From contig JADLCI010000001.1 of NCBI GenBank assembly GCA_020847275.1, positions 2,540 through 66,539 of the forward strand: a stretch of 64,000 bases of DNA. The letters are read 5' to 3'. Each line of letters begins with the position of its first letter. The stretch's first letter is position 1. Under the pieces are notes generated by a model. It saw only the letters and a program-made list of their open reading frames with translations, was not told where the DNA came from and ran no database searches. The stretch is from Candidatus Nomurabacteria bacterium (lineage in GTDB: Bacteria > Patescibacteriota > Minisyncoccia > Phycocordibacterales > JACOZG01). This document shows, in pieces, positions 3,178 through 52,593 of the stretch. Made by a program: the position numbers and the translations under genes.

Positions 3178-5574
3178 CTATAAAATAATCAACTTGCCAC
3201 CCAAGAACTCGATCCGCGTCCCCGCTCCAACCTCACCACTAATTATTCTATCCGCAACAGCCTGCTCAACCTTATCCTGAATAAAGCGGGCCAATGGCCG
3301 AGCACCAAAAACTCGATTGGTTCCGGCGTCGGCCACACGATTAATCAGATCATCATTGAGTTGCAGCTCGATGCCCTGAGTCCTCAATCGGGCAACTAAG
3401 CGATTAAGAAGTAGACGAGCAACCTGAAATAGTTCCGCCCCGACCAGTGGATGGAAGATCACAATCTCATCGAAACGGTTGAGCAACTCCGGCCGGAAAA
3501 GTGACCGTTTGATAAGGTGGTTCACCAACTCATCCCGCGCGGTGCTTGGGTCACGCCCCGCCTCTACCATCTCCCAGATCATCTCGGCGGCGGCATTAGA
3601 GGTCGCGATAAAGATGATATTACGCGTATTGACTCGACGACCAAATGCATCAGAGAAAAACCCTTCGTCCAGAATCTGAAGAAACAAGTTAAGCACCTGC
3701 TGACTGGTCTTCTCAAACTCATCCAAAAGTAGAACCCCGTAAGGGTTCTGCCGTAGAAGATTAGCGAGTATCCCCTGTTTATTTTCGGCAAAAGAGCCAA
3801 TCAGACGATTCAAGGCATCATCTGATTGATATTCCGACATATCTAGCCGCAAAAGCGCCTCCTCGCGCCCGAAAAGTGTCCGCGCTAACGCCTTTGCTGT
3901 TTCCGTCTTACCGACGCCAGTTGGCCCCAAAAAAAGAAAACTGCCGATCGGGCGCCCGCGGTTCGCCGTACCCGCACGACTCCGACGAAGCGCCTGACTA
4001 ATTGCTCGTAAAGCCACCTCCTGGCCGATCACTTGATGTTGTAAATTTTGTTCCAAACTCAATAAAGATTCCCGTTCTAAAACAGAAACCGAACCAGCGG
4101 GGATCTTCGTTTTCTGACTGACAAAGGCCAAGACCTCTTCTCGCCCGATAATCTTCTCCCCACTACTCACCGCCCAAGGCACTAACTCCACCAATAAATC
4201 AAGGGCTCGGTCACTGATTGAATCTGTCTGGAAATATCGTCCAGCACTTTCAACCAAAGAAACAAGGGATTGGTAGGTAAAAAAGATTCCCAGCTTCTTT
4301 TCAAAATTTACCGCCACTTCCTCGAGAAAAATGATTAAACGCGACTGGTCGATTTCTGTCGCACGAATAACCTCGAAACGACGGGCTAATTCGGGCACAC
4401 CAGCAATTGACTGTTGATAGGAATCCGTGTCGACAAGAGCAATAATCGGTAAAATTGCCGCCCCAAGATACGGATCGAGAAGCGAGGTTAATTCGCTGCC
4501 AAGTCTCCGCGCGCCAGCAAGCAAAACAGCGAGATCATCAATTACCAAAATCGTATTACCCGACTTGGCGGCCTCATTCATGATCTGCAAAACTGTCTGC
4601 TCAAAAGTGCCGCGCTCTCGATGGTCAGCAATCAGCAGGGCGGCGTGGAGAAGAACCGGGCGGCGGTGTTCTAGGGCCGGCACTACGAAACCACTCTTAA
4701 TTTCATTCGCCAATTGCCAAATTATATCCATCTTTGACTCCCCTGCGGGCCCAACAATAAGCGCATTTGATTCTTGGCTACGCAGGAGGACATTCTCCAA
4801 CTGTCGAACCTCGTCGCGACGCACCGTGGCGGTCTGCCGAAAGCCACTTGATTGTGGTGCCAGCAATAAATCTTCACTGTAACGATCGAGGACAAAGGTC
4901 TGTCCGAAAGACCAATCCTTAGCCAAACCAGGAATTCTTCCCAAACTCTCACGACTCCACCAGCGCTCGGCAAGAGCCTTGCGCTCAATCTCACTCACCA
5001 CCCAAGCAACCGCGCCAACCAATTCCGGCTGATTGATCTCGTGGCGGAAAAGGAATTTGGCAAAATCTTCATTGTTGGAATAAATCCAGTCCGCCAACTT
5101 GGCCAAGGTTAGCGGTTCAGCGCCCGCGAGAGAGAGGGTGGGCAGATTCTTTTTCTGTGGTCGTGTCTGAAGAAAAGATCGGATCTCCGTATCCATCACC
5201 CCAAGACGTCTTAAAACCAAATTTCCCGTCTTGGATAACATAAAAGCCGTCAGAACATCCTCATCTTTATTTCTCAATCGATACAAAATACGCCCAACCG
5301 TAAAGGTGAAGAGATCCTCACGCCGATAACGATTAGTAATGATGCTAGAAAAATAATAAGAACGGAAAAAAACCTCAAGGAGGTGAAGCATCAGAATTGC
5401 CGTCGCGAGAATAAGCACCAATCCCAACCATCGAGAAGTCTGATCGAGAGACAAGAGCAATGCGAGTGTCATCACCTCCACTACCCAACGAAGAAATCGT
5501 CGGTCGCGACGGGAAATCAGGTTCTCCAAAACAAGAACTGGGTAAAGTCGACTAGATTTTATTCTTTCAAACAT
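3178..5574 (-). CDS. Membrane-anchored Clp/Hsp100-family AAA+ ATPase with degenerate first nucleotide-binding domain
   Basis: 798 aa; two N-terminal TM helices. The D2 domain is intact ([15 protein letters not shown]...LLRLDMSEYQ, sensor-2 region). The D1 Walker A is replaced by GPAGESKM. Confidence 0.7.
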   Translation of the reverse strand: MFERIKSSRLYPVLVLENLISRRDRRFLRWVVEVMTLALLLSLDQTSRWLGLVLILATAILMLHLLEVFFRSYYFSSIITNRYRREDLFTFTVGRILYRLRNKDEDVLTAFMLSKTGNLVLRRLGVMDTEIRSFLQTRPQKKNLPTLSLAGAEPLTLAKLADWIYSNNEDFAKFLFRHEINQPELVGAVAWVVSEIERKALAERWWSRESLGRIPGLAKDWSFGQTFVLDRYSEDLLLAPQSSGFRQTATVRRDEVRQLENVLLRSQESNALIVGPAGESKMDIIWQLANEIKSGFVVPALEHRRPVLLHAALLIADHRERGTFEQTVLQIMNEAAKSGNTILVIDDLAVLLAGARRLGSELTSLLDPYLGAAILPIIALVDTDSYQQSIAGVPELARRFEVIRATEIDQSRLIIFLEEVAVNFEKKLGIFFTYQSLVSLVESAGRYFQTDSISDRALDLLVELVPWAVSSGEKIIGREEVLAFVSQKTKIPAGSVSVLERESLLSLEQNLQHQVIGQEVALRAISQALRRSRAGTANRGRPIGSFLFLGPTGVGKTETAKALARTLFGREEALLRLDMSEYQSDDALNRLIGSFAENKQGILANLLRQNPYGVLLLDEFEKTSQQVLNLFLQILDEGFFSDAFGRRVNTRNIIFIATSNAAAEMIWEMVEAGRDPSTARDELVNHLIKRSLFRPELLNRFDEIVIFHPLVGAELFQVARLLLNRLVARLRTQGIELQLNDDLINRVADAGTNRVFGARPLARFIQDKVEQAVADRIISGEVGAGTRIEFLGGKLIIL

Positions 5575-5580
5575 GGTGCA

Positions 5581-5967
5581 TTATAATAAAAGCTTTATTC
5601 CCAAAAGAAGGCTCGCGACAACGATAAACGGCAAAGCAAACCAAACAATAAAAACAGCAAATCCTATCAACATTGAGATAAACAAAACAAATGTCCCGAA
5701 AACGACCAACAGAAAACGGATCAGGAAACCAATGAGACGCATAAATGTATTGATGAAGAAGCTTGCGAAAATTTCTGACAGATTAAAGCGACCAGGATAA
5801 GCCTCCCCCAGCCGTCTCCATGGAGAAAATAAAGTTTTCAGTAGTACGGGCAGAGAAAAGAAGTGGTAAATAAACCAGAGAAAGTCGCGGTAAATCCGGG
5901 AGAGGTCTCCCCAGGCAACCGTGTAATGCCAAACGAGATAATTAAATGGCAGAACCAAAATTGGCAT
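5581..5967 (-). CDS. hypothetical polytopic membrane protein
   Basis: 128 aa, highly hydrophobic with about 4 TM segments; no recognisable motif. Confidence 0.4.
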   Translation of the reverse strand: MPILVLPFNYLVWHYTVAWGDLSRIYRDFLWFIYHFFSLPVLLKTLFSPWRRLGEAYPGRFNLSEIFASFFINTFMRLIGFLIRFLLVVFGTFVLFISMLIGFAVFIVWFALPFIVVASLLLGIKLLL

Positions 5968-7201
5968 ATTGCTCTAGAACTGTTGGCAATTTAACCTTGC
6001 CATCAGCTTGCTGATAATTTTCCACCAAAGCGGCGATAATTCGTGGTGTTGCCATCGCCGTACAGTTGAGCGAGTGAGCAAAGTGAATCTTGCCATCGGT
6101 TCCACGATAGCGAATATTGAAACGTCTTGTCTGGAAATCGTGATAATAGGACGCACTAGACCCCTCGCGATAAGTTTTCTGACTTGGAAACCAGATCTCC
6201 GTGTCATACTGTTTTACCTTACTCAGTCCAAGATCACCGCCACAAATAAGAAGCCTTCGATAAGGCAACCCGAGTGACTCTAGAAATTCCTCATAATTAC
6301 GATTTAGCTCTTCGTGTATCCGGGCTGACTCAGTGTGATCAGCTTTGCATAAGATGAGTTGCTCTAGTTTAAAAAACTCATGGACCCGAATTAGACCCTT
6401 CACGTCCTTACCGTGACTCCCGGCCTCACGACGATAACACGGTGAGAAAGCAAGATAACGCTTCGGTAAATCTAACTCATCTAAAATTTCATCCCCATGA
6501 TAAGCCATCATGGGTACTTCGGCTGTCCCAGAGAGATAATCATCGTCCTGGGTCTTAAACAAATCTTCAGACTCTCTTGGAAGATGGCCCGTACCATAGA
6601 AATATTCTTTTTTTACAATTGCCGGAGCAATAAATGGCTGATAATCTTTCTGGCCAAAAAAAGCTCGCGCGGAGTTCCATAGCGCCCAAGAAAGTTCGGC
6701 CCCATCTCCACAAAGAAAGTAGCCCCGAAATCCGTGAACTTTTGTCCCCCTCTCGAAATCAACCCAGCCCAAATTCTGCATTAACTCAATGTGATCCTTA
6801 GGGGTGAAATCAAATTTAGGCTTCTCCCCCCAAGTGGCCACCTCCACATTCTCGCTTTCATCTTTCCCGTCTGGAACCGAAACATCTGGAACATTCGGCA
6901 CCTGAAGCATCAGTCTCTGCCAATCGATCACAATCTCCTTCAGATCCGCTTCGTCTGTTTTGAGCTTAGTCTTTAAATCACGTAACTTGGTTAGAATCTC
7001 TGCTTGACCAGAAATATCTGTCTTCGCCACCTCTTCTCCCAGTTTATTCTGTTCAGCCCGCTTAGACTCTACCTCCGCCAACAACTTCAAGCGTTTCTCG
7101 TCTAAGACCAACAATTCTTCCACATTAAAGTCCAGGTGCTTTTTCATCACCGCGCTTTTGACTAATTCCGCATTCTCTCGAATAAACTTGATGTCCAACA
7201 T
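5942..7201 (-). CDS. serS: seryl-tRNA synthetase
   Basis: 419 aa; N-terminal coiled-coil arm (MLDIKFIRENAELV...) and class II aaRS core motifs. Confidence 0.93.
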   Translation of the reverse strand: MLDIKFIRENAELVKSAVMKKHLDFNVEELLVLDEKRLKLLAEVESKRAEQNKLGEEVAKTDISGQAEILTKLRDLKTKLKTDEADLKEIVIDWQRLMLQVPNVPDVSVPDGKDESENVEVATWGEKPKFDFTPKDHIELMQNLGWVDFERGTKVHGFRGYFLCGDGAELSWALWNSARAFFGQKDYQPFIAPAIVKKEYFYGTGHLPRESEDLFKTQDDDYLSGTAEVPMMAYHGDEILDELDLPKRYLAFSPCYRREAGSHGKDVKGLIRVHEFFKLEQLILCKADHTESARIHEELNRNYEEFLESLGLPYRRLLICGGDLGLSKVKQYDTEIWFPSQKTYREGSSASYYHDFQTRRFNIRYRGTDGKIHFAHSLNCTAMATPRIIAALVENYQQADGKVKLPTVLEQYANFGSAI

Positions 7202-20898: not shown

Positions 20899-21945
20899 TT
20901 ACAAAATTATTTTATTTAAAACCCTCACTCTTTCTAATTTTTCTAAAATTCTTGGCAGGACTTTCAAAACATAATCTAAATCCTTCTTTCTTGTCTCTGT
21001 TGCCAATGAGAATCGTACTGAATTTATTATAACATGGGAATTATTTCGTGCAGAAATAGAACAAGCAGAACCAGTAGAAACAGCCACCCCCTTCGCATCC
21101 AACTCCAGCGCAATTTGTTCACCAAGCAGGCCGTCAAAACTGACATTCACATTGTTTGCCAGTCTCCACTCTCCTTCCGGACCGTTCAATTTTACACCGG
21201 GCAATTTTAGTAGTTCAGAGATGAAATAATCCCGCAACTTGGCCACTCTTTTGCTTTCCCGATTCCTATTTTTGCTTGCCAGTTCTAACGCTCTTGCAAA
21301 CCTGGTAATCCCTTCCACATTTTCTGTCCCCGATCTTAAACCTTTCTCTTGTCCACCACCAAGAAAAACTGGGCTTAGACTAACGCCACGCCGCACAAAG
21401 AGGCAGCCAACTCCCGGCACACCCAGCTTACTGCCGTTTAGGGTCATTAAATCTACGCCTAATTTCTGAACATTCAGATCTAGATATCGTGGTGCTTGGC
21501 AGGCGTCGATATGCAAATATGGCTGGTGTGTTTTATTTTTCTGGCGAAACTTTCTAACAGACTTCGCCACCTCTCTAATTGGCAGGATCACGCCAGTTTC
21601 ATTGTGGGCATAGATAATTGAGACTAGATCTGTTTCACGGCGCAAAGACTCTTTTAAACTAGAAATATCCTTCAAAAAAGTGGCGTTAAGGGTCGCAGCA
21701 GGTTCCAGAACCGAAGCATGTTCTAACTCGGTGACAATAAGATGCCTGGGACGAAGGCCAAAAATTGCTAAATTATTGCCCTCTGTCCCGCCCGAAGTGA
21801 AAATAATCTCGTCTGGTTGAGAAAACAGGACACGCGCCACCTTGTCTCTGGCTTTTTCCAGTTTTATTTTGGCCACCACCCCGCTGGCATGTAAGCTAGA
21901 TGGATTCCGTGGTCCAGCCGCTGCGTCTAGAAAAATTTGCTTCAT
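20899..21945 (-). CDS. cysteine desulfurase / class V aminotransferase (NifS/IscS-like)
   Basis: 348 aa; PLP-fold motifs (IIFTSGGTEGNN, HNETG, LNGSKLGVPGVGCL). Confidence 0.8.
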   Translation of the reverse strand: MKQIFLDAAAGPRNPSSLHASGVVAKIKLEKARDKVARVLFSQPDEIIFTSGGTEGNNLAIFGLRPRHLIVTELEHASVLEPAATLNATFLKDISSLKESLRRETDLVSIIYAHNETGVILPIREVAKSVRKFRQKNKTHQPYLHIDACQAPRYLDLNVQKLGVDLMTLNGSKLGVPGVGCLFVRRGVSLSPVFLGGGQEKGLRSGTENVEGITRFARALELASKNRNRESKRVAKLRDYFISELLKLPGVKLNGPEGEWRLANNVNVSFDGLLGEQIALELDAKGVAVSTGSACSISARNNSHVIINSVRFSLATETRKKDLDYVLKVLPRILEKLERVRVLNKIIL

Positions 21946-21975
21946 TATCGCGATTCTAGTATAATTTCTCCCACG

Positions 21976-22422
21976 ATGCCAGACCTTAGCTTTTTTGACC
22001 CTTTCTATCTACTGGTTGGAGCCTGCGTCCTCCTGCTTGCTTGGTCTGTTTACCTAGAGTGGCGTCTACGCCGCTTTACGCTCGGCAAAAATGGTAACAG
22101 TCTAGAAGATTCATTCCACTCCCTTGCAGACAGTGTCAAACAAACGGATAAGGTCAATCAGGAAATAAAAGAACACCTAATCAAGATGGAAGAGCGCCTA
22201 CAGAAAAGCGTCCAACAAGTAAAGACGGTTCGTTTCAATCCCTTTGCTGTTCAGGGTGGAAATTACAGTTTCGCCACGAGCTTCTTGGACGAACACGGTG
22301 ATGGCGTTGTAATCTCTACTCTCTATTCGCGAGAGAAGACAAGTGTCTTCGCTAAGCCAATCAAGAACCGCGCTTCAGAATTCGAGCTCTCCGACGAGGA
22401 GCGCCGCGCCATCGCGCTTTAA
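21976..22422 (+). CDS. hypothetical membrane-anchored protein
   Basis: ORF 21937-22422, trimmed to MPDLSFF (21976) to avoid overlapping the divergent desulfurase start; one TM followed by a coiled-coil-like region. Confidence 0.4.
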   Translation: MPDLSFFDPFYLLVGACVLLLAWSVYLEWRLRRFTLGKNGNSLEDSFHSLADSVKQTDKVNQEIKEHLIKMEERLQKSVQQVKTVRFNPFAVQGGNYSFATSFLDEHGDGVVISTLYSREKTSVFAKPIKNRASEFELSDEERRAIAL

Positions 22423-23908: not shown

Positions 23909-24226
23909 ATGTCACGACGAGAAGATCGACTGGTAGCAGAACTCCAGCGGCTAGCCGCAGAGTTTCTCGGTCTTCACGCTGGACCACGATCACTGATAAC
24001 GGTTACCGACTGCATTCTCTCCAACAATAGCCAGCGCTTACAAATTCTAATCTCGGTTCTCCCCGAAACCGAAGAACGGGCGGCCCTCGCCTTTGTCCGC
24101 CGGCAGTTGAGCGAGTTCATCCTTTTCGTCCACAAACATTTACGCGCTGGGTACTTACCTCAAATCAGCTTCGCGTTGGACGCGGGCGAGAAACATCGCC
24201 AAAAGATTGATAAACTGTTACAGTAA
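23909..24226 (+). CDS. rbfA: ribosome-binding factor A
   Basis: 105 aa; KH-like RbfA fold, RLAAEF...LITVTDC...D signature; start codon overlaps the infB stop. Confidence 0.85.
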   Translation: MSRREDRLVAELQRLAAEFLGLHAGPRSLITVTDCILSNNSQRLQILISVLPETEERAALAFVRRQLSEFILFVHKHLRAGYLPQISFALDAGEKHRQKIDKLLQ

Positions 24227-24234
24227 TCCAGAGC

Positions 24235-24307
24235 TGGCCTAGTCGCCAAGTGGTAAGGCAAGAGTCTGCAAAACTCTTACGCGGCGGTTCGATTCCGCCC
24301 TAGGCCT
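24235..24307 (+). tRNA. tRNA-Cys (anticodon GCA)
   Basis: Acceptor GGCCTAG/CTAGGCC, anticodon stem AGAGT/ACTCT with loop CTGCAAA, T-arm GGCGG-TTCGATT-CCGCC; CCA is encoded. Confidence 0.85.
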
Positions 24308-24310
24308 CCA

Positions 24311-24394
24311 GCCCGGGTGACGTAATTGGTAGCCGTAACAGACTTAAAATCTGTTGCTCGAAAGGGCGTGTGGGTTCGAGTCCCACCCCGGGCA
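24311..24394 (+). tRNA. tRNA-Leu (anticodon TAA)
   Basis: Acceptor GCCCGGG/CCCGGGC, anticodon loop CTTAAAA, long variable arm, T-arm GTGGG-TTCGAGT-CCCAC. Confidence 0.85.
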
Positions 24395-24415
24395 CCTTGT
24401 TTCATTGAAATTCAG

Positions 24416-24487
24416 GCCCTGTTAGCTCAGTTGGTAGAGCAGTCGCCTCTTAAGCGAACGGTCGGGGGTTCGAATCCCTCACAGGGC
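24416..24487 (+). tRNA. tRNA-Lys (anticodon CTT)
   Basis: Acceptor GCCCTGT/ACAGGGC, D-arm GCTCAGTTGGTAGAGC, anticodon loop CTCTTAA. Confidence 0.8.
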
Positions 24488-24500
24488 ACAGTTTTTACAA

Positions 24501-24584
24501 GCCGAGGTGGCGAAATTGGCAGACGCACCAGCCTTAGGAGCTGGCGGGGGCAACCCCATGGAGGTTCAAGTCCTCTCCTCGGCA
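24501..24584 (+). tRNA. tRNA-Leu (anticodon TAG)
   Basis: Acceptor GCCGAGG/CCTCGGC, anticodon stem CCAGC/GCTGG with loop CTTAGGA, long variable arm. Confidence 0.85.
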
Positions 24585-24588
24585 CTAC

Positions 24589-24618
24589 TTGACAAGAATA
24601 GTTCTATGGGTGTATAAT
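24589..24618 (+). promoter_or_regulatory. sigma70 promoter (TTGACA-18-TATAAT with an upstream TG) for the SPFH gene
   Basis: cTTGACAagaatagttctatgggtgTATAATaag lies immediately after the tRNA cluster, about 95 nt upstream of the ATG at 24714. Confidence 0.5.
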
Positions 24619-24713
24619 AAGGGTCGGATGATTATAGAGGTCGTGTGACCCCTTTCATCAAGTTTGATCCTTGAAAACGGGCTTTCAAACCCCATATACA
24701 GAAGGAGAATGAC

Positions 24714-25823
24714 ATGTTTGAGGTAAACTGGGCAAATATCTGGTCAACAACCACTCCATTCCTTTGGTGGTTCGGAATTCCTCTCATCACGGTTTTCCTG
24801 ATACTTCTGGTTAATCTGATGGCAAGGAACGATTTCATCATTGGGTTCGTCCCAGAGGGTCAAATCAAGGCGGTCTTAGCTGGTGATTCGTTACACAAAC
24901 TACTGGTAAATATCGGTGGTTATGATTACGATCGCGAGCTCAGAGAAATTACACCCAGCAGTAAGAAAAAACCATGGAGACCCTTTGGAATTTACTGGAT
25001 TGGCCTACCGCCATTCAAAAGTGTCCTACGTTATCCTTTCTCATGGGTAAAGTGGGATAAGCCGGAAGACTCAGCCCACTTTGCGCTGATTCCGCGGAAT
25101 CGAGAGATTGTCAGTTCCCTTTTCTTCCGGTATCCGTATGGCGTACAGGTCAGGGGCATCAGACTAAAAGGAAACATTGAGGTTGAAATCACACTTGTAG
25201 TCACACTCGAAATAGTTAGACCAGAAACAACCCTATTTCGGATCCAACCAACTGGTAATTGGCTCGGACTCGTTATAGCCAAAGTCGAAGAGGCTACTCG
25301 TGGTTGGGCTGGTGAAAAGGGAAACGAAGGGGAGGAGTTTGATGTTGAAAAACTTCGTTCCTTGGCCGCGAGAGAAGAAGGTGCCGCAGATGACCTGCGA
25401 ACACGAATTATGGAAATGAACGGGCATCCACCCACAGAGGGGTTGCCAGAATCAGCAGACGGCACCAGAAGACTTTGCGGTGTAGACATCATCTCTGTTG
25501 ATTTCCAGGGTTGGAAATTCGTCGACCCGGACGCTGAAAAAGCTTACCAGAGTGAGGAGATTGAGAATCGAGTGGCCGATGGCGTAAGAGCCAAAGCAGA
25601 CGGTGAAGCGGCCCGAATCGGAAAAGTTGGTGACGCCGAAGCAAGGGTCATCGCCGCCAAACTTAACGCCGCAGGTGGTAACCACACCCTGGCCGCGAGC
25701 CTGGCACAAGCAACAGCTCTGCAAGAAACCAATGTCAGAGTCCTGTCTCTTGCTGGTGGGACACCACCAATCAACACCATTCCGGTTGATGGACCAACAG
25801 CAGATGACACAAGGGAAGACTGA
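24714..25823 (+). CDS. SPFH/band-7 (flotillin/YqiK-like) membrane protein
   Basis: 369 aa; SD AGAAGGAGAAT; N-terminal TM, an SPFH beta/alpha core, and a C-terminal Ala/Glu-rich helical region (AEKAYQSEEIENRVADGVRAKADGEAARIG...). Confidence 0.55.
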   Translation: MFEVNWANIWSTTTPFLWWFGIPLITVFLILLVNLMARNDFIIGFVPEGQIKAVLAGDSLHKLLVNIGGYDYDRELREITPSSKKKPWRPFGIYWIGLPPFKSVLRYPFSWVKWDKPEDSAHFALIPRNREIVSSLFFRYPYGVQVRGIRLKGNIEVEITLVVTLEIVRPETTLFRIQPTGNWLGLVIAKVEEATRGWAGEKGNEGEEFDVEKLRSLAAREEGAADDLRTRIMEMNGHPPTEGLPESADGTRRLCGVDIISVDFQGWKFVDPDAEKAYQSEEIENRVADGVRAKADGEAARIGKVGDAEARVIAAKLNAAGGNHTLAASLAQATALQETNVRVLSLAGGTPPINTIPVDGPTADDTRED

Positions 25824-25840
25824 ATTTCGTTACAGAACAA

Positions 25841-25879
25841 GGCCGTTTGGGGTTAGCAACCCAAACGGCCTTTTTATTT
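25841..25879 (+). terminator. intrinsic terminator after the SPFH gene
   Basis: GGCCGTTTGGG-GTTAGCAA-CCCAAACGGCC followed by TTTTTATTT. Confidence 0.75.
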
Positions 25880-25882
25880 CGC

Positions 25883-25910
25883 TTGACAAAAAAGTTGCTT
25901 GTGATATAAT
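25883..25910 (+). promoter_or_regulatory. strong sigma70 promoter (TTGACA-16-TATAAT)
   Basis: Consensus -35 and -10 hexamers immediately downstream of the terminator; drives the two-gene membrane-protein operon. Confidence 0.6.
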
Positions 25911-25972
25911 AGAAACAGTTGATTGTTCCCTGACAAAACGTGTTGTCTAGATACAGAAGGAGTAAGGTCGCC

Positions 25973-26146
25973 ATGTTTGAAAGTGTTGGGATTGTGTCCA
26001 TTGTGAGTGTTGTCTCAATACTCTATGGAGTATTGGGAATCCTCTGGTGTTTCCGGCGAGAAATCAAAACCACACTGCGTTTTCTACACAAATTATGGAA
26101 GGCTCGCAAAGAACTCTGGCAAAAAGCCAAGGAGGAAAACAAATGA
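25973..26146 (+). CDS. small membrane protein (57 aa), first gene of a two-gene operon
   Basis: SD AGAAGGAG; MFESVGIVSIVSVVSILYGVLGILWCF is one TM followed by a basic amphipathic tail; its stop overlaps the next start (ATGA). Confidence 0.45.
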   Translation: MFESVGIVSIVSVVSILYGVLGILWCFRREIKTTLRFLHKLWKARKELWQKAKEENK

Positions 26147-26817
26147 CGAGAAAGATTCTTTTACTTTCGTCTGTCGTGGCGATAATGATGGGTAGTTTTT
26201 TTCTTTTCTCAAATGGCACAAGAAAAGCTGTTGTCCCGTCACCACCGGCCATAGAAACTAACAACCCCTTAAACCTGGCAGAGAAACTTGTCACCATATC
26301 TCTAATTGGGCTTCTAGTGGCAATCGGACTTCTGGCGATCTACAGAATGTGGAAAATAACCAGAGGTAACCATGACAAACAGGATAAAGACAAAAATGGG
26401 GAGGACAGAAAATCGACACCGATCAACTGGAAGTGGGTCGGGAAAACAGCGGGAAGTTTTGTCTTACTCATTCTGCTTGTTCTTGGTGGTTACTGGCTAT
26501 ACACCAGCGATCAATCAATCACCGGTCGGTGGGCACGGCCACAACAAACGAACCGAGGCCGTGTTGGCACCCTTGGCTGGGACGAACTGATCGCAACAAG
26601 CGATGCGTGGTCCAGACCAACGAAACCGATCCCCGGTGATTGTGACTTCCAGATCCACGAGGACGGAGACGGCTGGATCAAGTTTCCCAACGGGGAAATC
26701 CATGAGATTGGACCAATGGTTCTGGTTAATTGGCCAGATATCCCAAGGGGAAGTTTCCAGTTCAAAGCCAAGGAAGGGTCAATCAAGGTTAAGGTCGTCT
26801 GGCAACCGAGGCGCTAG
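26143..26817 (+). CDS. hypothetical membrane protein (3 predicted TM helices plus a C-terminal soluble domain)
   Basis: 224 aa from the ATG at 26143 (SD AAGGAGGAAAA); TM helices at about 10-30, 75-97 and 130-150; the C-terminal 70 aa are hydrophilic. Confidence 0.5.
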   Translation: MTRKILLLSSVVAIMMGSFFLFSNGTRKAVVPSPPAIETNNPLNLAEKLVTISLIGLLVAIGLLAIYRMWKITRGNHDKQDKDKNGEDRKSTPINWKWVGKTAGSFVLLILLVLGGYWLYTSDQSITGRWARPQQTNRGRVGTLGWDELIATSDAWSRPTKPIPGDCDFQIHEDGDGWIKFPNGEIHEIGPMVLVNWPDIPRGSFQFKAKEGSIKVKVVWQPRR

Positions 26818-26823
26818 AGACCA

Positions 26824-26877
26824 AAACCCCCCAGTCATTGTTGCGCGATGCAACGATGACGGGGGGTTTTATTTTTT
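26824..26877 (+). terminator. long GC hairpin terminator between convergent genes
   Basis: CCCCCC...GGGGGG stem of about 18 bp followed by TTTTATTTTTT. Confidence 0.65.
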
Positions 26878-26886
26878 CCAGAATAT

Positions 26887-27159
26887 TTATCTCGTAACCG
26901 TAATATAAATTAGACTGAGAATACCTTTAACCGAGAAAATGATGAAGAGACCGATCACCCCGTAGAGAACATGCTGTTGACCCTTCTTCCGTTCTTCTTC
27001 ATTCGCCGCCCCCATCACCATCTCGTAAACCCCATAGAGGAACATCCCGAGAGAGGCGGCGGCCAGCAACAAGATTAGCGGATCGACAATTGCTTTATTA
27101 ATCCGATCCAGAATCGGCAAATTGGTAGCCGCAGAAGCAGTCTTAACCAACCAATTCAT
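26887..27159 (-). CDS. VirB2/TrbC-like pilin-family small membrane protein (paralog 5)
   Basis: 90 aa; two hydrophobic helices separated by a charged loop (EEERKKGQQ). Confidence 0.5.
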   Translation of the reverse strand: MNWLVKTASAATNLPILDRINKAIVDPLILLLAAASLGMFLYGVYEMVMGAANEEERKKGQQHVLYGVIGLFIIFSVKGILSLIYITVTR

Positions 27160-27534
27160 TTAGAAGCCCTGAGGTGGAGGAACTGTAGGAATCTGGGTTG
27201 GACGATTGGCCCCGCCGAAGTTAAACGTCCCACCAAGCACATTGACCAAACCCCAGACCGAGACCATCACGAAGAGAGCGATAACACCGTAGATCATTGT
27301 GGAACGGCCAGCCGCCTTTTTCTCATCGTCACCACCAGCGGTAACATACTGAAGAACACCCCAAAGGAAATACACGACCCCCAGACCAATTATCAGCGGG
27401 ATGATGTAGTTATTGATTAAGCGAATAATCGTAGCAAAACCACCTTCAAGACTAGTCACACTCTGAGCCAGAGCAAACACCGGAAGAGCAAGGGTTAGAC
27501 CAGAAACAGAAACTTGCTTGAAAAACTTGTTCAT
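27160..27534 (-). CDS. VirB2/TrbC-like pilin-family protein (paralog 4, with signal peptide)
   Basis: 124 aa; signal peptide ...ALA-QS, TM1, loop GGDDEKKAAGRS, TM2 MIYGVIALFVMVSVWGLVNVLGGTFN. Confidence 0.55.
   Translation of the reverse strand: MNKFFKQVSVSGLTLALPVFALAQSVTSLEGGFATIIRLINNYIIPLIIGLGVVYFLWGVLQYVTAGGDDEKKAAGRSTMIYGVIALFVMVSVWGLVNVLGGTFNFGGANRPTQIPTVPPPQGF
27221..27298. repeat. gene-conversion tract shared by pilin paralogs 3 and 4 (copy 1)
   Basis: 61 bp identical to 27604-27664 (TTAAACGTCCCACCAAGCACATTGACCAAACCCCAGACCGAGACCATCACGAAGAGAGCGA), with partial identity continuing. Confidence 0.8.
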
Positions 27535-27557
27535 TTATTTTTATTAAACTATTAATA

Positions 27558-27842
27558 CTATCTGTCGGAAAGCGACGGCACGGGGAGAGAATTATTGTCG
27601 AGATTAAACGTCCCACCAAGCACATTGACCAAACCCCAGACCGAGACCATCACGAAGAGAGCGACAATTCCATAGATCATCATCTTCCTCCCCTCTTCTC
27701 GGTCGTCATCACTACCCGATTGCCTAACATATTTTAGCACGCCCATCAAAAAGTACGCAACCGCAACCGCCAAGAACAAGTAGGAAAGCGGATTAAGGAC
27801 CTTCGTAATCAATGTATTCACCAAATAAGCGAAATCTTTCAT
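27558..27842 (-). CDS. VirB2/TrbC-like pilin-family protein (paralog 3)
   Basis: 94 aa; same two-helix topology; TM2 is identical to paralog 4 over about 26 aa. Confidence 0.55.
   Translation of the reverse strand: MKDFAYLVNTLITKVLNPLSYLFLAVAVAYFLMGVLKYVRQSGSDDDREEGRKMMIYGIVALFVMVSVWGLVNVLGGTFNLDNNSLPVPSLSDR
27604..27680. repeat. gene-conversion tract (copy 2)
   Basis: See 27221-27298. Confidence 0.8.
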
Positions 27843-27850
27843 AAATTATT

Positions 27851-28186
27851 TTATCGTCCGACCTCTAAACTAGTAATCGTATTCTCAATAACACTGGAAA
27901 TCACGAACGCCCCAAGCACAATTGCTGCGCCAATCACAACCGTTAGAAGAGCGTTCTTGGCCTTCTTCAGACCATCCTCACTGCCACGAGCAGAGACAAA
28001 CAGGAAGCCGACGTAAACCACGGCTAGGACCAAAATTGGCATCCCCACCTGGATAATAATCTCCAGGATCTTATTCACCAAATCACTCAAACTGTTAACG
28101 TTAATCGGGTTGCTTATTAGACCGCCGGATCCAGTATTCCCTGTTTGCTGCTGTGCGTGAGCAACGAGTAATTTCCAAGTAGACAT
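27851..28186 (-). CDS. VirB2/TrbC-like pilin-family protein (paralog 2)
   Basis: 111 aa; two TM helices separated by the loop ARGSEDGLKKAKN. Confidence 0.5.
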   Translation of the reverse strand: MSTWKLLVAHAQQQTGNTGSGGLISNPINVNSLSDLVNKILEIIIQVGMPILVLAVVYVGFLFVSARGSEDGLKKAKNALLTVVIGAAIVLGAFVISSVIENTITSLEVGR

Positions 28187-28204
28187 TAGTTTAATCCTAA
28201 CATT

Positions 28205-28609
28205 TTAATTACCAAGTGGCACCACTCGTTCGATACTACTACGAAATTCAGGCTTAATTAAAGATTTCACGATTGTGGTAACAATCAACCAGGCCCCAAT
28301 GACTAAAACGAGCCCAATGACCGCCGCTTCAATAATCTCCTTACCTTCAGTCCGTTTCCCTTCTTTACCTGGATTACTGGCCATAATAATACCAGCGTAA
28401 ACAATTGCGATGGTGGCCACCGGCACAGCCAATGTAAAAACGAAATACTTAATAATCTTGTCGAGAAGAATGAAGAAATCTGCCGCACCACAATCGTCAC
28501 CAGCACAAGTGGGAACCAGCGGCGCTTGAGCGTATGCAAGAGTCGCCACTCCCAAGAAGCCAACTAGACAAAGGGAAACGACAAGGACTTTAATTGCTGA
28601 TGTTCTCAT
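28205..28609 (-). CDS. VirB2/TrbC-like pilin-family protein (paralog 1, with signal peptide)
   Basis: 134 aa; signal peptide ...LAYA-QA, TM1, loop NPGKEGKRTEGKE, TM2. Confidence 0.55.
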   Translation of the reverse strand: MRTSAIKVLVVSLCLVGFLGVATLAYAQAPLVPTCAGDDCGAADFFILLDKIIKYFVFTLAVPVATIAIVYAGIIMASNPGKEGKRTEGKEIIEAAVIGLVLVIGAWLIVTTIVKSLIKPEFRSSIERVVPLGN

Positions 28610-29924
28610 CTCGGCGTGGTAACAAATTTTCTAATTCTATATCGGCATTACTAATTGCCCGATCGGCATCGACCTGGCCAAGTGCAATTGACTCTGCTAG
28701 ACGACGAAAAATTGCCTGCGTCTTGCTTGGATCTGGATCTAGCCAGTCACGAGCAAGAATTGCGGCCTGATAGAGCACGGCCAGATTGGGATCCGACGGT
28801 GCTTTGGTAAGCAAATCATTGCGCGCTGGTGGTAAGCCAACCGCACCCGCAATCATCGCGCCAAACTTACTGCCGGCGAGTATGGTGGAAACAAGATAGG
28901 CCGTCGTCGGATTCTTAGCGCCAAGGGGAATACCGAGAAAATAAAACCGCCCGAGCGTAACTTGCTTTGCGCCCACGTCACGCTGCGGCGGCAGTGTTAG
29001 ATAAAAATTGAGTTGCGGATTCTGTACCGCCAGGCGTGAAAGCTCGCTTCCGAAACCAAAGTAGAGAGCAAGGCGACCGCGAAGAAATGCCTCGAGTGCT
29101 TCCGGCTGGGAGCTATTCCAAGCATAAAGGGTATTAGTCGGATCAGTAAAACGAAGAAAAAAGGCAACCGCTTCGCCGGCCGGCGCCTTATTGAAACCAA
29201 GCGAATCTTTTAGCGTTACGGTCGGGAAACCATTGCTACGGGCGACGATTGGATTGCCGGCTTGGATGAAAAGTAGCGAGAGCAATTCCTTGGCATGTGT
29301 AATATTACTAAAAGAACCTATCGCCATCGCTGCCTGATTAATATTTCCCCGACCATCAGCTTGTGTGAGTAATTTAATCGCCGGTGCTAAATCCTTCCAT
29401 AAACGAGGGACCAGTGGCAGCTTAGCGTTAGTCAGCAAATCTTGATTATAATAGAGAACCAGTGGGTCAACATAAATCGGTAGACCGATCACGCCGTTTG
29501 ATCCAAACATGAGTTCCCAATCTTTCAAACTAGTCCCCAATACAAAAGTGTCTTTAAAAGATTGTCGAGAAATTGAGGCATAGGGAATCGGCTGAAGTTT
29601 TGCTTCCTGTCGTAAAAGTTGATCCGAGGCAAGGGTAACCAAGTCTGGTCCGCGACCGAGGGCTAGAGCCTCCACCAAATCGTTCTCAATAGTTTCGGGA
29701 TTTTTCTCAACATATTGTAGGGTGAAATCACCGTCATGTTCACGACTAATCTGATTCAACATCTCCCCCAAACTATCTTCAGGAATTGTCCCCCACCACA
29801 CAACTAACCCCCCTGTTCCTCCTTCCGGCGCACGAAAACCCGGCAAAACACCAGCAAAGACAAGCACGCCAACAATGAGCGCGACGATAAAAGCTCCGAC
29901 AATTGTCATCTGAAAGCCGTTCAT
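28590..29924 (-). CDS. membrane-anchored extracellular solute-binding protein (ABC-type, family 1-like)
   Basis: 444 aa; N-terminal TM anchor and a periplasmic-binding-protein-like bilobed domain typical of sugar-type SBPs. Confidence 0.55.
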   Translation of the reverse strand: MNGFQMTIVGAFIVALIVGVLVFAGVLPGFRAPEGGTGGLVVWWGTIPEDSLGEMLNQISREHDGDFTLQYVEKNPETIENDLVEALALGRGPDLVTLASDQLLRQEAKLQPIPYASISRQSFKDTFVLGTSLKDWELMFGSNGVIGLPIYVDPLVLYYNQDLLTNAKLPLVPRLWKDLAPAIKLLTQADGRGNINQAAMAIGSFSNITHAKELLSLLFIQAGNPIVARSNGFPTVTLKDSLGFNKAPAGEAVAFFLRFTDPTNTLYAWNSSQPEALEAFLRGRLALYFGFGSELSRLAVQNPQLNFYLTLPPQRDVGAKQVTLGRFYFLGIPLGAKNPTTAYLVSTILAGSKFGAMIAGAVGLPPARNDLLTKAPSDPNLAVLYQAAILARDWLDPDPSKTQAIFRRLAESIALGQVDADRAISNADIELENLLPRRDENISN

Positions 29925-45617: not shown

Positions 45618-46544
45618 CTATTGCGAGAGCGGTGCTTCGATTTGTAGATAACTCGTTTGAAGTTTACTGACAAAGAATTCTTTGTTTACAAGAAGAACAC
45701 CAAAAAGTACGAGGATTAGAAGCAACCCGTTCACGATGATATGCGGGTGCTGAATTTTAATTCTGATAAAAAAGTTAAGAAGGAAGGCAACAATGGCCAG
45801 AGCAAGAAGGGAATAATAGACCTTACTGGAGACGGTATGTAGACGCGTGGCTAGAATCTGCCAATAACTTAGCTTCGTTGCCGCTACCGCCGCACCAAGC
45901 ACCTGATTAAGGCGTGGCGAATCATCAGGCGATTCACTAATGTTAATACTGGCGAGGGTCTGCGTGGTGGCAATAGCGGGTTTACCAAAAAACTGGACGA
46001 CAAAGAGAGTATTGCGACCTTGATAATTCCCAGCCGCCACGCCGATACCAATTTCGCTAAAAACTGGCCGAATCAGGTTAGCCTCGTGGGTCGGTGAACG
46101 CCGCCACGCTTCTGCAACATCACGAGAATCAAAGAAGTTGACGGCCAGGTTCTCACCAGCATAACTAAACTTGTATCCCACTTTATCCAGCCAAGTCCAC
46201 GGCTCCTCTCCCTCGGGACTTTGGTGTGAGAAGTAGCCACGGGTCGCCATGTCCTCAGCTTTCAATTGCGCCGCCCGCGTTAGCAAGGAGTTGGTTTCTA
46301 AGTCAGGTAAAGAAGTCGCCTGTCTTGTCTCGTTGGTGAGAGCCACCAGAGCTTCCGGTAGAACCGCAGCAAGGAAGCCATTACGTGGCAAAACAAAGAA
46401 AGAAGGAATCACTACGGCCGCCTCAATCAGCACCACCAACACCAGCAGGGCAACCACACTCCCCTCGCGCAAAAAATGCGGTTGGTGAGTATTGTCATCA
46501 TGTGGGATGAAATACTTCTTGAATCGTTCTAGCCAGCGATTCAT
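45618..46544 (-). CDS. CAP (SCP/PR-1/YkwD-like) domain membrane protein
   Basis: 308 aa; TM, a CAP motif (GYFSHQSPEGE...YAGENLA...AWRRSPTHEANL), and C-terminal TM helices. Confidence 0.6.
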   Translation of the reverse strand: MNRWLERFKKYFIPHDDNTHQPHFLREGSVVALLVLVVLIEAAVVIPSFFVLPRNGFLAAVLPEALVALTNETRQATSLPDLETNSLLTRAAQLKAEDMATRGYFSHQSPEGEEPWTWLDKVGYKFSYAGENLAVNFFDSRDVAEAWRRSPTHEANLIRPVFSEIGIGVAAGNYQGRNTLFVVQFFGKPAIATTQTLASINISESPDDSPRLNQVLGAAVAATKLSYWQILATRLHTVSSKVYYSLLALAIVAFLLNFFIRIKIQHPHIIVNGLLLILVLFGVLLVNKEFFVSKLQTSYLQIEAPLSQ

Positions 46545-46559
46545 TTACTTAACTAAGAA

Positions 46560-47813
46560 TTAACGAGAACGATTAAGGATTGTGGTAAGTTGCTGAAGAG
46601 TGTTGAGAAGTTGCAGGTTGGGTGTAAAAGCACCACGAACTTGAGCAATAGCGGGGCGAGACGAACGATTGCGCAGGGCAATCAAGAGTTTGGCAAACAA
46701 TTCACCAAGATCAACATCGCCAGTAAAGGCACCCAAGACTTGCCCCGTTACCGGAGGAACAGGTTGCCCAACGAAGCCACCACCGCCACGAGTACCACCC
46801 CCACCACCGCCACCGGAAGTAGAAGTTGGAGGAGTTACCACGGGAGGAATCTCCGGTTCTGGAGTGTCATCTACCGGTTCAGATAAAACTACCTCAATGC
46901 TATCGCTGACCGGTTCGGAAATATTGTTGTAAACATCCCTGCAACGATATTCTGCAGTGTAAGTTCCCTCCTCAAGCGGACCGAAAATGTACTCTGTGTC
47001 CATTGGATCCAACGTTCCATTGTCTCCCCAATCTTGGGTAGATAAACGAATTTCGCAGTACTGAATCTCCGTGTCATCCGTTCCGGACGAGAAGTTTGCC
47101 ATCACTAATCCTGTATTGTTTTGAGCTGCGCCACCATCCAACTCTAGACTTAGTCCAGTTGGTGGCATTGTATCAGTCGGTTCAACTGGAACTGATACTT
47201 CTATAGATTCTTCCGCGCTAGAGTAATTCCCGGCATTGTCGTAACAAATAAGAAATGTTGGGTACAAACCGTCTCCAGGAAATGAGTGAACAACTGGGCC
47301 ATCTGCAAGAATTTCCTCTTCAGGAGTTCCATCTGCCCAGTCCATCACACAGGTATTAAGTCCTGAACCATCGTCAGTCCCCCGAGTAAGTACCACAGAA
47401 ACATCGGTTGAATTTGAAATTGGGCCACCTACAAAATCAATATCTGTACCCGCTGGCGCAACAGTATCAACAGTGATTTCGGTTTCGATTGAATTGGCAA
47501 GCGATTCTCCGTTAAAGCAAACGAGGGATACGGTGTAGGTGCCATCGTTTGAATATCCGTGGTTGACTAAGCCTGGTGTGACCTCTTCAGCGCTTCCGTC
47601 GGCCCAGTCGATCTCACAAACGATTATCCCCGATTCTGGATCAGTTGCTTCAACAACCGCACTGACGGTTCCGGTATTGTTGTATTGGGCACCGCCGTCT
47701 AGTGTAAGCGAAACTTCAGGAGGGGTTGCGTCGGCCACTCCCGCTGAAGCTTGACCGGCAAGAAAGACTGATAAAATGAGAGCGGTAACCAAAAAAGCCT
47801 TATTTTTAAACAT
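46560..47813 (-). CDS. secreted repeat protein (three Ig/PKD-like repeats, Gly-run, amphipathic C-terminal tail)
   Basis: 417 aa; signal peptide, three repeats each about 100 aa (DxTPP...LDGGA.NNTG...C...DWADG), then GGGGGGGTRGGGG. Confidence 0.5.
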   Translation of the reverse strand: MFKNKAFLVTALILSVFLAGQASAGVADATPPEVSLTLDGGAQYNNTGTVSAVVEATDPESGIIVCEIDWADGSAEEVTPGLVNHGYSNDGTYTVSLVCFNGESLANSIETEITVDTVAPAGTDIDFVGGPISNSTDVSVVLTRGTDDGSGLNTCVMDWADGTPEEEILADGPVVHSFPGDGLYPTFLICYDNAGNYSSAEESIEVSVPVEPTDTMPPTGLSLELDGGAAQNNTGLVMANFSSGTDDTEIQYCEIRLSTQDWGDNGTLDPMDTEYIFGPLEEGTYTAEYRCRDVYNNISEPVSDSIEVVLSEPVDDTPEPEIPPVVTPPTSTSGGGGGGGTRGGGGFVGQPVPPVTGQVLGAFTGDVDLGELFAKLLIALRNRSSRPAIAQVRGAFTPNLQLLNTLQQLTTILNRSR

Positions 47814-47927
47814 ATTTTTATTGCTAACTAATAATCCTGTTTGAACCCCGATTATATATCAAGCCGTATCAAATTGTCAAGCCCAAGATCTTTTGCGCTA
47901 CTATTCAACAGCATATCATCATTCCGG

Positions 47928-51748: not shown

Positions 51749-52121
51749 TGGTGGAGATGGCGGGAATCGAACCCGCGTGCAAAAGGTTGACCTAAATTGT
51801 TCTACATACTTATCTCACTTTAAATTTTCGCCAACGCGACTCGAAATGAGCCAAACATCGCGCCAGTTAGCATCTTAGTTTTGAATTCGTGCCGATGCGA
51901 TCATGAATTCTAGCTCGCGAGTATAACACCCCTAGCCAGTCAGCAAGCGAGACCGGTAGAGACGCCGAGTTAAGCTAAAGCGAAACTCGGAACAGCGAAG
52001 TACGGTGAAACCGTACCGCCCTGCTTAGCCGTAGTTTTGGCAAGTAGATTTTACCTTTTGATTAACGAGAGTAAGGCGCTCTCGGTATGCCCAAAATGAG
52101 GACCGTCCAATTGTCTAGGCC
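51749..52121 (-). ncRNA. ssrA: tmRNA (SsrA)
   Basis: The 5' end is GGGGAUGAUCGGCCUAGACAAUUGGACGG and the 3' end is GCGGGUUCGAUUCCCGCCAUCUCCACCA (tRNA-Ala-like acceptor with a G3:U70 pair and encoded CCA). An internal tag-like reading frame ends ...AVPSFALA-UAA. It begins 14 nt downstream of the smpB stop. Confidence 0.8.
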
Positions 52122-52134
52122 GATCATCCCCGTT

Positions 52135-52593
52135 TTAAAAGCGACTTTTCAAAGTCCGATCAAGGTCTCGTTTATTCTCCCGTTTTTTAATCTTCTCACG
52201 CTTATCATACTTTTTCTTCCCCCGTGCAAGCGCAAGACCAAGCTTCAAACGACCGCCTTTATTATATACTGATAATGGAATGATTGTCAATCCCCGCTCA
52301 CCAATTCTGGCCGCCAAATCGCTAATTTCTTTTTTCGTCAGCAGAAGTTTCAGGGCTCGCCCTTTCTCGTAGTCTGGTGGCAAATTCGCCGCCTGATAAG
52401 GACTAATTTCTGCACCCACCAGGAAGGCCTCCCCTCCGCGAACCAAGACTCGTCCACCCTCTAGCTTACCTCGTCCCAGTTTGAGTGCCTTTACCTCAAA
52501 TCCGGATAATTCTAAGCCAGCCTCTAGTTTTTCTAAGAGTTCGTAGTCGTAGTGCGCTTTCGGGTTATTCACAAGATTAGACATTGTCCCCAT
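52135..52593 (-). CDS. smpB: SsrA-binding protein
   Basis: 152 aa from the ATG at 52593 (MGTMSNLVNNPKAHYDYELLEK...GFEVKALKLGRGKLEGG...ISPY...KLLLTKKEI...GLTIIPLSVY). The ORF-track N-terminal extension to 53085 is not SmpB-like. Confidence 0.85.
   Translation of the reverse strand: MGTMSNLVNNPKAHYDYELLEKLEAGLELSGFEVKALKLGRGKLEGGRVLVRGGEAFLVGAEISPYQAANLPPDYEKGRALKLLLTKKEISDLAARIGERGLTIIPLSVYNKGGRLKLGLALARGKKKYDKREKIKKRENKRDLDRTLKSRF

Follow-up and report, generated by a model that had tools for sequence, protein, structure and literature searches.

A 64,000-nt window of the genome of a Candidatus Nomurabacteria bacterium, a member of the candidate phyla radiation (CPR)/Patescibacteria, contains three consecutive genes, designated here A, B, and C, that encode a divergent SPFH/Band-7 protein, a small membrane peptide, and a larger membrane protein, and that we describe as a putative membrane-scaffold module. 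The window is the whole stretch of DNA that was analysed, namely positions 2,540–66,539 of contig JADLCI010000001.1 (assembly GCA_020847275.1). All coordinates given below are window positions, position 1 being the first letter of the 64-kb window, and related loci are referred to by L numbers. The module and its signals are arranged as follows.

24589–24618, + strand: promoter of gene A, TTGACA-18-TATAAT, 12/12 match to the consensus
24619–24713, + strand: 5′ leader of gene A, with a conserved box, TTGAAAAC, at 24671–24678 and an AAGGAG Shine-Dalgarno site
24714–25823, + strand: gene A, 369-aa divergent SPFH/Band-7 protein (GenBank IT398_00185)
25839–25872, + strand: intrinsic terminator of gene A, a GC-rich 13-bp hairpin and U-tract, then UUUUUAUUU; folding free energy (dG) −25.2 kcal/mol, z-score (z) −6.4
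25883–25910, + strand: B-C promoter, TTGACA-16-TATAAT, TG-extended, 12/12 match to the consensus
25911–25972, + strand: 5′ leader of B-C, with a conserved box, CTGACAAA, at 25930–25937 and an AAGGAG Shine-Dalgarno site
25973–26146, + strand: gene B, 57-aa single-pass membrane peptide
26143–26817, + strand: gene C, 224-aa membrane protein

Genes B and C overlap by ATGA, and an AGGAG-type Shine-Dalgarno site precedes each of them: AAGGAG lies 10 nt before the ATG of B, and AGGAGG lies 7 nt before the ATG of C at 26143. In GenBank, both A (IT398_00185) and the following annotated gene, IT398_00190, are labelled “hypothetical protein”; the latter is a 240-aa version of C that begins at 26095, a start that has no Shine-Dalgarno site, and gene B is unannotated there. 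We favor B plus a 224-aa C over the 240-aa C of GenBank because of the Shine-Dalgarno sites, the ATGA overlap, and the organization of the orthologous loci. Small open reading frames (ORFs) with a transmembrane (TM) segment occupy the position of B in L001, L008, L004, and L007, and in L009/L010 an ORF in this position, cut by the contig end, terminates on the start codon of C. Between L001 and L008, B shows a nonsynonymous divergence (pN) of 0.25 and a synonymous divergence (pS) of 0.62. We regard B as a real gene, since it has a Shine-Dalgarno site, an ATGA overlap with C, counterparts in five other loci, and a pN well below its pS.

The whole 64-kb window contains only four promoters with a 12/12 match to the consensus, and two of them drive A and B-C. 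The remaining two sigma-70-type promoters of this quality lie at 52290 (− strand), before the transfer-messenger RNA (tmRNA) gene (51749–52131), and at 47880 (− strand), before an operon for PKD-domain/CAP-family secreted proteins (45618–47813). Both the A and the B-C unit look highly expressed, because the window has just four perfect promoters and the other two serve tmRNA and the secreted PKD/CAP operon. A matching promoter of A was found in L001 and L008 (12/12) and in L007 (11/12), and a perfect 12/12 B-C promoter is located at the equivalent position in L007, L001, L008, L004, and L016. A hairpin followed by a T-run, read by eye, lies at the position of the A terminator in the same five loci. 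We read the terminator and consensus promoter between A and its partner as a derived feature common to the window and these five loci. An earlier note on this DNA had described the two promoters, the terminator, the ATGA coupling, and the tRNA genes upstream of A, and all of them are present.

At the level of family profiles and predicted fold, the product of gene A belongs, as a highly divergent member, to the SPFH (stomatin/prohibitin/flotillin/HflK-C) proteins. A profile of its close homologues retrieved 995 cluster representatives at E ≤ 1e-3 and 443 at E ≤ 1e-10, and Pfam Band_7 was matched by 31 of the 83 diverse family members that were scanned (best E 1e-11). The 83-sequence family profile matched the Pyrococcus (PH) stomatin core (1.2e-15), HflK (2e-7), QmcA (9e-7), human stomatin, prohibitins, and erlins. 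The syntenic homologue of A in L018 passes Band_7 with 40.3 bits (cutoff, 23.6), and IMG names one member of the family “regulator of protease activity HflC”. The AlphaFold2 (AF2) model of A, built from a 7-sequence alignment, has a mean predicted local distance difference test score (pLDDT) of 54, with values of about 70–79 at residues 139–320. This part of the model comprises strands at 139–151, 155–167, and 257–269, three helices between them, and a long 48-residue helix at 272–319. In a Foldseek search against the PDB, the top 44 matches were all SPFH proteins, with E-values down to 5e-6, and the TM-scores against isolated stomatin SPFH domains were 0.70–0.76. A carries insertions within the SPFH core, roughly at residues 60–135, which are poorly modelled, and these family-specific insertions explain why it is missed by Pfam. 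The SPFH identity proposed earlier for A was thus upheld for the family profile and the predicted fold, but not as a direct match to the Band_7 profile, of which there was none at E ≤ 1.

Hydropathy places a single TM segment of A at its N-terminus (residues 15–33), and together with the charge distribution it suggests an N-out anchor and a cytoplasmic SPFH domain. By analogy with the structures of HflK/C, QmcA, stomatin, prohibitin, and flotillin, A probably forms a homo-oligomeric ring or cage on the membrane.

Gene C encodes a protein with TM segments at residues 5–23, 49–67, and 98–116 (hydropathy), a K/D-rich cytoplasmic loop, and an all-beta C-terminal domain of ~85 aa (residues ~137–222 of the AF2 model), which is predicted to be cupin-like and extracytoplasmic. 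The model was built from 5 sequences and has a mean pLDDT of 64, and the C family has very few detectable relatives. According to Hinderhofer et al. (2009), NfeD proteins begin with three hydrophobic stretches, which a short hydrophilic linker joins to a soluble C-terminal domain of all-beta structure (PMC2636767). C has the same order of parts, with three TM segments followed by a beta domain, and it adjoins an SPFH gene in all nine readable loci. Nevertheless, neither C nor six of its homologues matched NfeD (PF01957) at E ≤ 1, the PDB matches of a profile of nine C homologues included no NfeD chain at E ≤ 10, and the predicted fold of the C-terminal domain is cupin-like and not an OB-fold beta-barrel. 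C and its homologues are 215–294 aa long, compared with 140–150 aa for typical short NfeD proteins. Judged by sequence and predicted fold, C is not a member of the NfeD family, although it fills the genomic and architectural slot of NfeD.

The C-terminal domain of C is predicted to adopt a double-stranded beta-helix (cupin) fold. Its invariant residues are A151, P164, P191, F207, V216, V218, and W220, with no His or Glu among them, and the domain has neither a Pfam cupin match nor conserved His/Glu metal-binding motifs. It is best seen as a non-catalytic cupin-like module. When C, its relatives, and its syntenic homologues were compared with Pfam, no family rose above noise, and B and C yielded no usable match in Pfam, NCBIfam, PHROGs, or PADLOC. 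Weak matches of C to Tcp10_C, Sulf_transp, and others were below threshold and were rejected as an effect of TM composition. By the positive-inside rule, the beta domain of C is predicted to lie outside and the SPFH domain of A in the cytoplasm, and this prediction is consistent across all split and fused forms of the partner, whatever the number of TM segments. For an NfeD partner, the beta domain would be expected on the side of the SPFH domain, and the predicted topology points away from this.

These results bear on three statements of the earlier note. The proposal that the SPFH protein has a partner other than NfeD was borne out, since C fails NfeD by sequence and by predicted fold. The description of B and C as having no recognisable domains stands for sequence, but not for structure, because the C-terminal domain of C is predicted to be cupin-like. 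The suggestion that the module lies outside known families needs the same division: C is not NfeD, yet it copies the NfeD layout, which makes the module a variation on the SPFH-partner theme.

Linkage of the downstream genes to A, which had also been proposed, was supported by gene order. A is followed by C, or by B and then C, in nine of nine distinct readable loci (the window, L001/L002, L003, L004, L006, L008, L016, L018, and L019), while the contig of L007 stops within B. With the close A alignment, related loci were found only in GTDB genomes (2) and JGI metagenomes (1, already known), and none in IMG/VR. L018 and L019 are the two most distant loci examined, their A proteins being 28–29% identical to that of the window, and in both the stop codon of A overlaps the start codon of C; in L006, the gap between A and C is 20 nt. 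The overlap and the short gap indicate co-transcription, and probably translational coupling, in those lineages. The flank 5′ of A is variable (IF2-RbfA-tRNAs, PheS/T, or MurJ), and the A-C pair is retained.

In L016, a Ca. Vogelbacteria locus, the slot of A is occupied by a 474-aa protein (5405–6829) with a marginal Band_7 match (E 0.05) and a probability of 2% against the A-family profile in hhalign. The promoter and leader of this gene align with those of A in L004. The 474-aa protein is probably an even more diverged orthologue of A, a placement that we base on synteny and on the leader shared with L004.

The partner of A appears in two forms. Hydropathy of B indicates one TM segment (residues 5–23) and a basic C-terminal tail with 11 K/R that is predicted to be cytoplasmic. 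L006, L016, and L017 have no separate B, and the partner has four TM helices instead. B is predicted to be N-out/C-in and C to be N-in/C-out, the sum of which is the four-TM topology of the fused partners. Because the predicted topology of B plus C reproduces the four-TM form, we infer that B and C arose by gene split or fusion relative to it, and that B corresponds to its first TM segment.

The leaders of A and B-C contain a common TTGACAA-like box, which is TTGAAAAC in the former and CTGACAAA in the latter in the window. TGACAA is invariant in all six aligned B/C leaders, and TTGA[CA]AA is near-invariant in the A leaders, where the flanking sequence has diverged. Elsewhere, the box was located at 5958 and 7255 in L001, 206 and 1611 in L004, 1585 in L008, and 6960 in L016. 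The other five strong promoters in the window have leaders that lack it. The box is identical to an extended −35 hexamer and lies ~20–55 nt 3′ of the −10 element; its interpretation as the −35 element of a second promoter was rejected on sequence inspection, as no consistent −10 element follows it across the loci. RNAalifold gave no consensus structure for the A leaders, and single-sequence folds of the leaders were non-significant (A leader z −1.3), so we do not call the leader a structured RNA element. The box matched no Rfam family. It is a possible common operator or RNA signal that may co-regulate A and B-C. A TTGACAA leader box and a consensus-like promoter also precede a gene for an N-terminally hydrophobic protein of 204 aa in L006 (2117–2834) and L013 (3081–3798). 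The C-terminal half of this protein resembles an SPFH core by eye; it has no Pfam match and no homologue in the window.

We consider, with moderate confidence, that the best explanation of the locus is a CPR-specific membrane-scaffold module, in which the divergent SPFH protein A operates with a split, non-NfeD membrane partner made up of B and C. Such a module is to be viewed as a lineage-specific variation on the SPFH-NfeD pair rather than as a wholly new system. A would be anchored by its one N-terminal TM segment, with the SPFH domain and the long, putatively coiled-coil helix on the cytoplasmic face of the membrane, and, by analogy with SPFH assemblies of known structure, its ring or cage would fence off a membrane patch. 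The TM helices and basic cytoplasmic loop of C would sit in or at the enclosed patch, and its cupin-like domain, which lacks the metal ligands of cupin enzymes, would project outside the cell. In this sub-lineage, the partner would be divided into B, with one TM segment and a basic tail, and C, with three TM segments and the beta domain, and both might contact A through their TM helices and basic cytoplasmic segments. A and B-C would be co-regulated through the leader box.

Several observations weigh against this explanation. Gene A alone had no match at E ≤ 1 in Pfam (Band_7, PF01145, included), NCBIfam, PHROGs, or PADLOC, and a profile of its 7 close homologues retrieved no SPFH protein from the PDB, its only matches there being designed Kelch-like proteins hit by chance. 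The AF2 models of A and C were built from very shallow alignments (7 and 5 sequences, respectively), and the fold calls hold for the better-predicted parts. The co-occurrence of A and C was drawn from 12 contigs, of which 11 were informative, compared with ~1000 representatives of the A family. In the window lineage, A and B-C are separate transcription units, and the wider neighborhood (pilins, solute-binding protein, methyltransferase, and GyrA) is conserved as well, so inherited synteny could account for part of the adjacency. B and the first TM segment of the fused partners show no significant sequence similarity. The topology was derived from hydropathy and the positive-inside rule alone; if it is right, the beta domain of C and the SPFH domain of A lie on opposite sides of the membrane, and any contact between the two proteins has to be made through TM helices and cytoplasmic loops.

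Among the closest known systems are the SPFH1/stomatin-NfeD pairs, such as E. coli QmcA-YbbJ, Pyrococcus PH1511-PH1510, and B. subtilis FloT-YuaF. As in A-C, an anchored SPFH protein is encoded beside a small polytopic protein, the partner has three hydrophobic stretches and a C-terminal all-beta domain, and it is PH stomatin, HflK, QmcA, and human stomatin that A matches best in profile and fold. In contrast to these pairs, C has no NfeD signature, its domain is predicted to be cupin-like instead of OB and to face outward, the partner is split here into a peptide and a three-TM protein, and the genes form two transcription units in this lineage instead of one operon. The family-specific insertions of A, which put it below the Pfam Band_7 threshold, are a further difference.

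The SPFH protein SamI of B. subtilis works with the membrane proteins SamG and SamH, which are encoded beside it, and restrains or organizes them in envelope-stress signalling (10.64898/2026.02.06.704340). The PspA-SamG-SamH-SamI (YdjGHI) system resembles the present locus in arrangement, as an SPFH gene stands with two neighboring genes for membrane proteins. However, SamI has no membrane anchor of its own and has a zinc finger, and no PspA/ESCRT-III gene adjoins A. By analogy, SamGHI provides a precedent for an SPFH protein that works through membrane partners encoded nearby. HflK and HflC, which enclose FtsH, are among the top fold and profile matches of A, and the SPFH domain and long helix of A suggest a similar ring-forming architecture. 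In contrast, HflK/C is a heteromeric pair with periplasmic domains, while the present locus has one SPFH gene, whose product is predicted to hold its domain in the cytoplasm, and ftsH is not adjacent.

The features that flank the module are given below.

24236–24585: tRNA genes Cys, Leu, Lys, and Leu, 5′ of gene A
26823–26870: terminator hairpin between C and the convergent pilin operon, with a U-tract on the + strand and UUUUGG on the − strand; dG −35.2 kcal/mol, z −7.45
26887–28609, − strand: five tandem VirB2/TrbC-like T4SS_pilin genes (90, 124, 94, 111, and 134 aa)
28590–29924, − strand: solute-binding-protein gene, preceding the pilin genes on the same strand

An Rfam scan of 24200–27000 found nothing above threshold beyond tRNAs. 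A sub-threshold match to YrlA (Y RNA-like) at 24347–24474 (25 bits, E 0.02; gathering score, 69) covers two of the tRNA genes, and tRNA-like structure most likely produces it as an artefact. In L016 (4306–5241), the Leu-taa and Lys-ctt genes, two of the four conserved tRNA genes upstream of A, are inverted relative to the window. Further upstream, a gene for a DUF4446 protein (21937–22422, E 4e-33) lies directly before infB and rbfA, and the order DUF4446-IF2-RbfA also occurs in L001 and L016.

The most constant neighbor of the module, overlooked in the earlier note, is the convergent array of VirB2-like pilin genes. All five pilin genes in the window match PF18895 (E 5e-8 to 1.5e-12) and are mutually divergent in sequence. 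The first pilin ORF ends at 26887 on the − strand, and the strong hairpin at 26823–26870 is common to B-C and the pilin operon. C is convergent with PF18895 genes in every locus that reaches past C (the window, L001–L004, L006, L008, L009, L010, and L016–L019), and this holds where the flank 5′ of A differs. The loci that cover the whole array contain 4–7 pilin genes. The solute-binding-protein gene overlaps the first pilin gene by 20 nt and is followed by a methyltransferase gene and gyrA; the pilin/solute-binding-protein/methyltransferase/gyrA block recurs in L001, L004, L006, L016, L018, and L019. Patescibacteria are recognised as carrying VirB2-like arrays, and one array of this kind is reported to be essential in Ca. 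Southlakia epibionticum, a cultivated Saccharibacterium (PMC12102498). The neighboring array, with five genes here and 4–7 in related loci, matches these arrays (PF18895/PF04956), whereas A, B, and C themselves are neither pilins nor known parts of a type IV secretion system (T4SS). The link between the module and the pilins is positional only, and conserved synteny could also explain it.

The position of the array raises the possibility that A-(B)-C is an accessory of the pilins that organizes, quality-controls, or anchors these small two-TM pilin-like proteins, with the outward domain of C touching the pilins or the host surface. We find this rather unlikely, though it is compatible with the membrane-scaffold module favored above. 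Immediate convergence with the pilin genes whatever the upstream flank of A, a single strong hairpin terminator used by both operons, and the essentiality reported for an array of this kind all speak for it. So does a study that reportedly places the T4SS of Agrobacterium in detergent-resistant membranes (PMC8656257). However, the convergent orientation means that the two units are not co-transcribed, and the solute-binding protein, methyltransferase, and GyrA are equally conserved, so the whole may be a frozen housekeeping neighborhood. Moreover, a scan of the ten large ORFs at 33–48 kb of the window revealed neither a T4SS ATPase gene (virB4) nor a T4SS channel gene. The paper on the T4SS of Patescibacteria makes no mention of SPFH (PMC12102498). 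A more specific version is a speculation that we think unlikely: A, together with the split partner and its outward cupin-like domain, would serve as a dedicated platform on which the VirB2-like array is assembled or anchored at the CPR cell surface, and the two units would be co-regulated via the TTGACAA box.

It is quite improbable, in our view, that C is a true but extremely diverged NfeD and that the locus is an ordinary SPFH-NfeD operon beyond recognition by sequence. C has the exact NfeD layout and an SPFH gene as its neighbor, NfeD homologues of weak conservation may go undetected (PMC2636767), and just 5 sequences underlie the model of C. Against this stand the failure of C and its homologues to match PF01957, the failure of the C-homologue profile to find any NfeD chain in the PDB, the predicted location of the C domain outside the cell, and the greater length of C. 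The view that the adjacency is inherited synteny only, A being a stand-alone SPFH protein and B-C an unrelated, independently transcribed operon, agrees with the own promoter and strong terminator of A, with the own promoter of B-C, and with the synteny of the whole 10-kb neighborhood among these genomes. It is very improbable, however, given the overlapping A/C frames in L018 and L019, the 20-nt spacing in L006, the survival of the A-C pair through changes of the upstream flank, and the box shared by the A and B-C leaders, which has no counterpart in the other strong-promoter leaders of the window. A role in defence, suggested in the earlier note, was rejected: no PADLOC or PHROG match was obtained at E ≤ 1, no relatives were found among the viral contigs of IMG/VR, and the neighborhood is a housekeeping one.

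SPFH scaffolds are found in every domain of life, and in prokaryotes their textbook partner is NfeD. In the present case, a genome-reduced CPR bacterium retains an SPFH gene that is too diverged for standard annotation and is therefore listed as “hypothetical”, and this gene and its partner genes are driven by promoters as strong as that of tmRNA. If the membrane-scaffold module is real, it would represent partner replacement, or divergence past recognition, in SPFH systems. The main gain is in annotation: three “hypothetical” genes, among them B, which GenBank lacks, receive a function-level assignment, and the start codon of C is corrected. As the family has ~1000 representatives, any functional insight would be widely transferable. 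The locus also suggests a possible connection of membrane scaffolding with the enigmatic VirB2-like pilin arrays of Patescibacteria; if the module does serve as a platform for the pilins, it would be an unrecognised, lineage-wide component of the episymbiotic surface apparatus.

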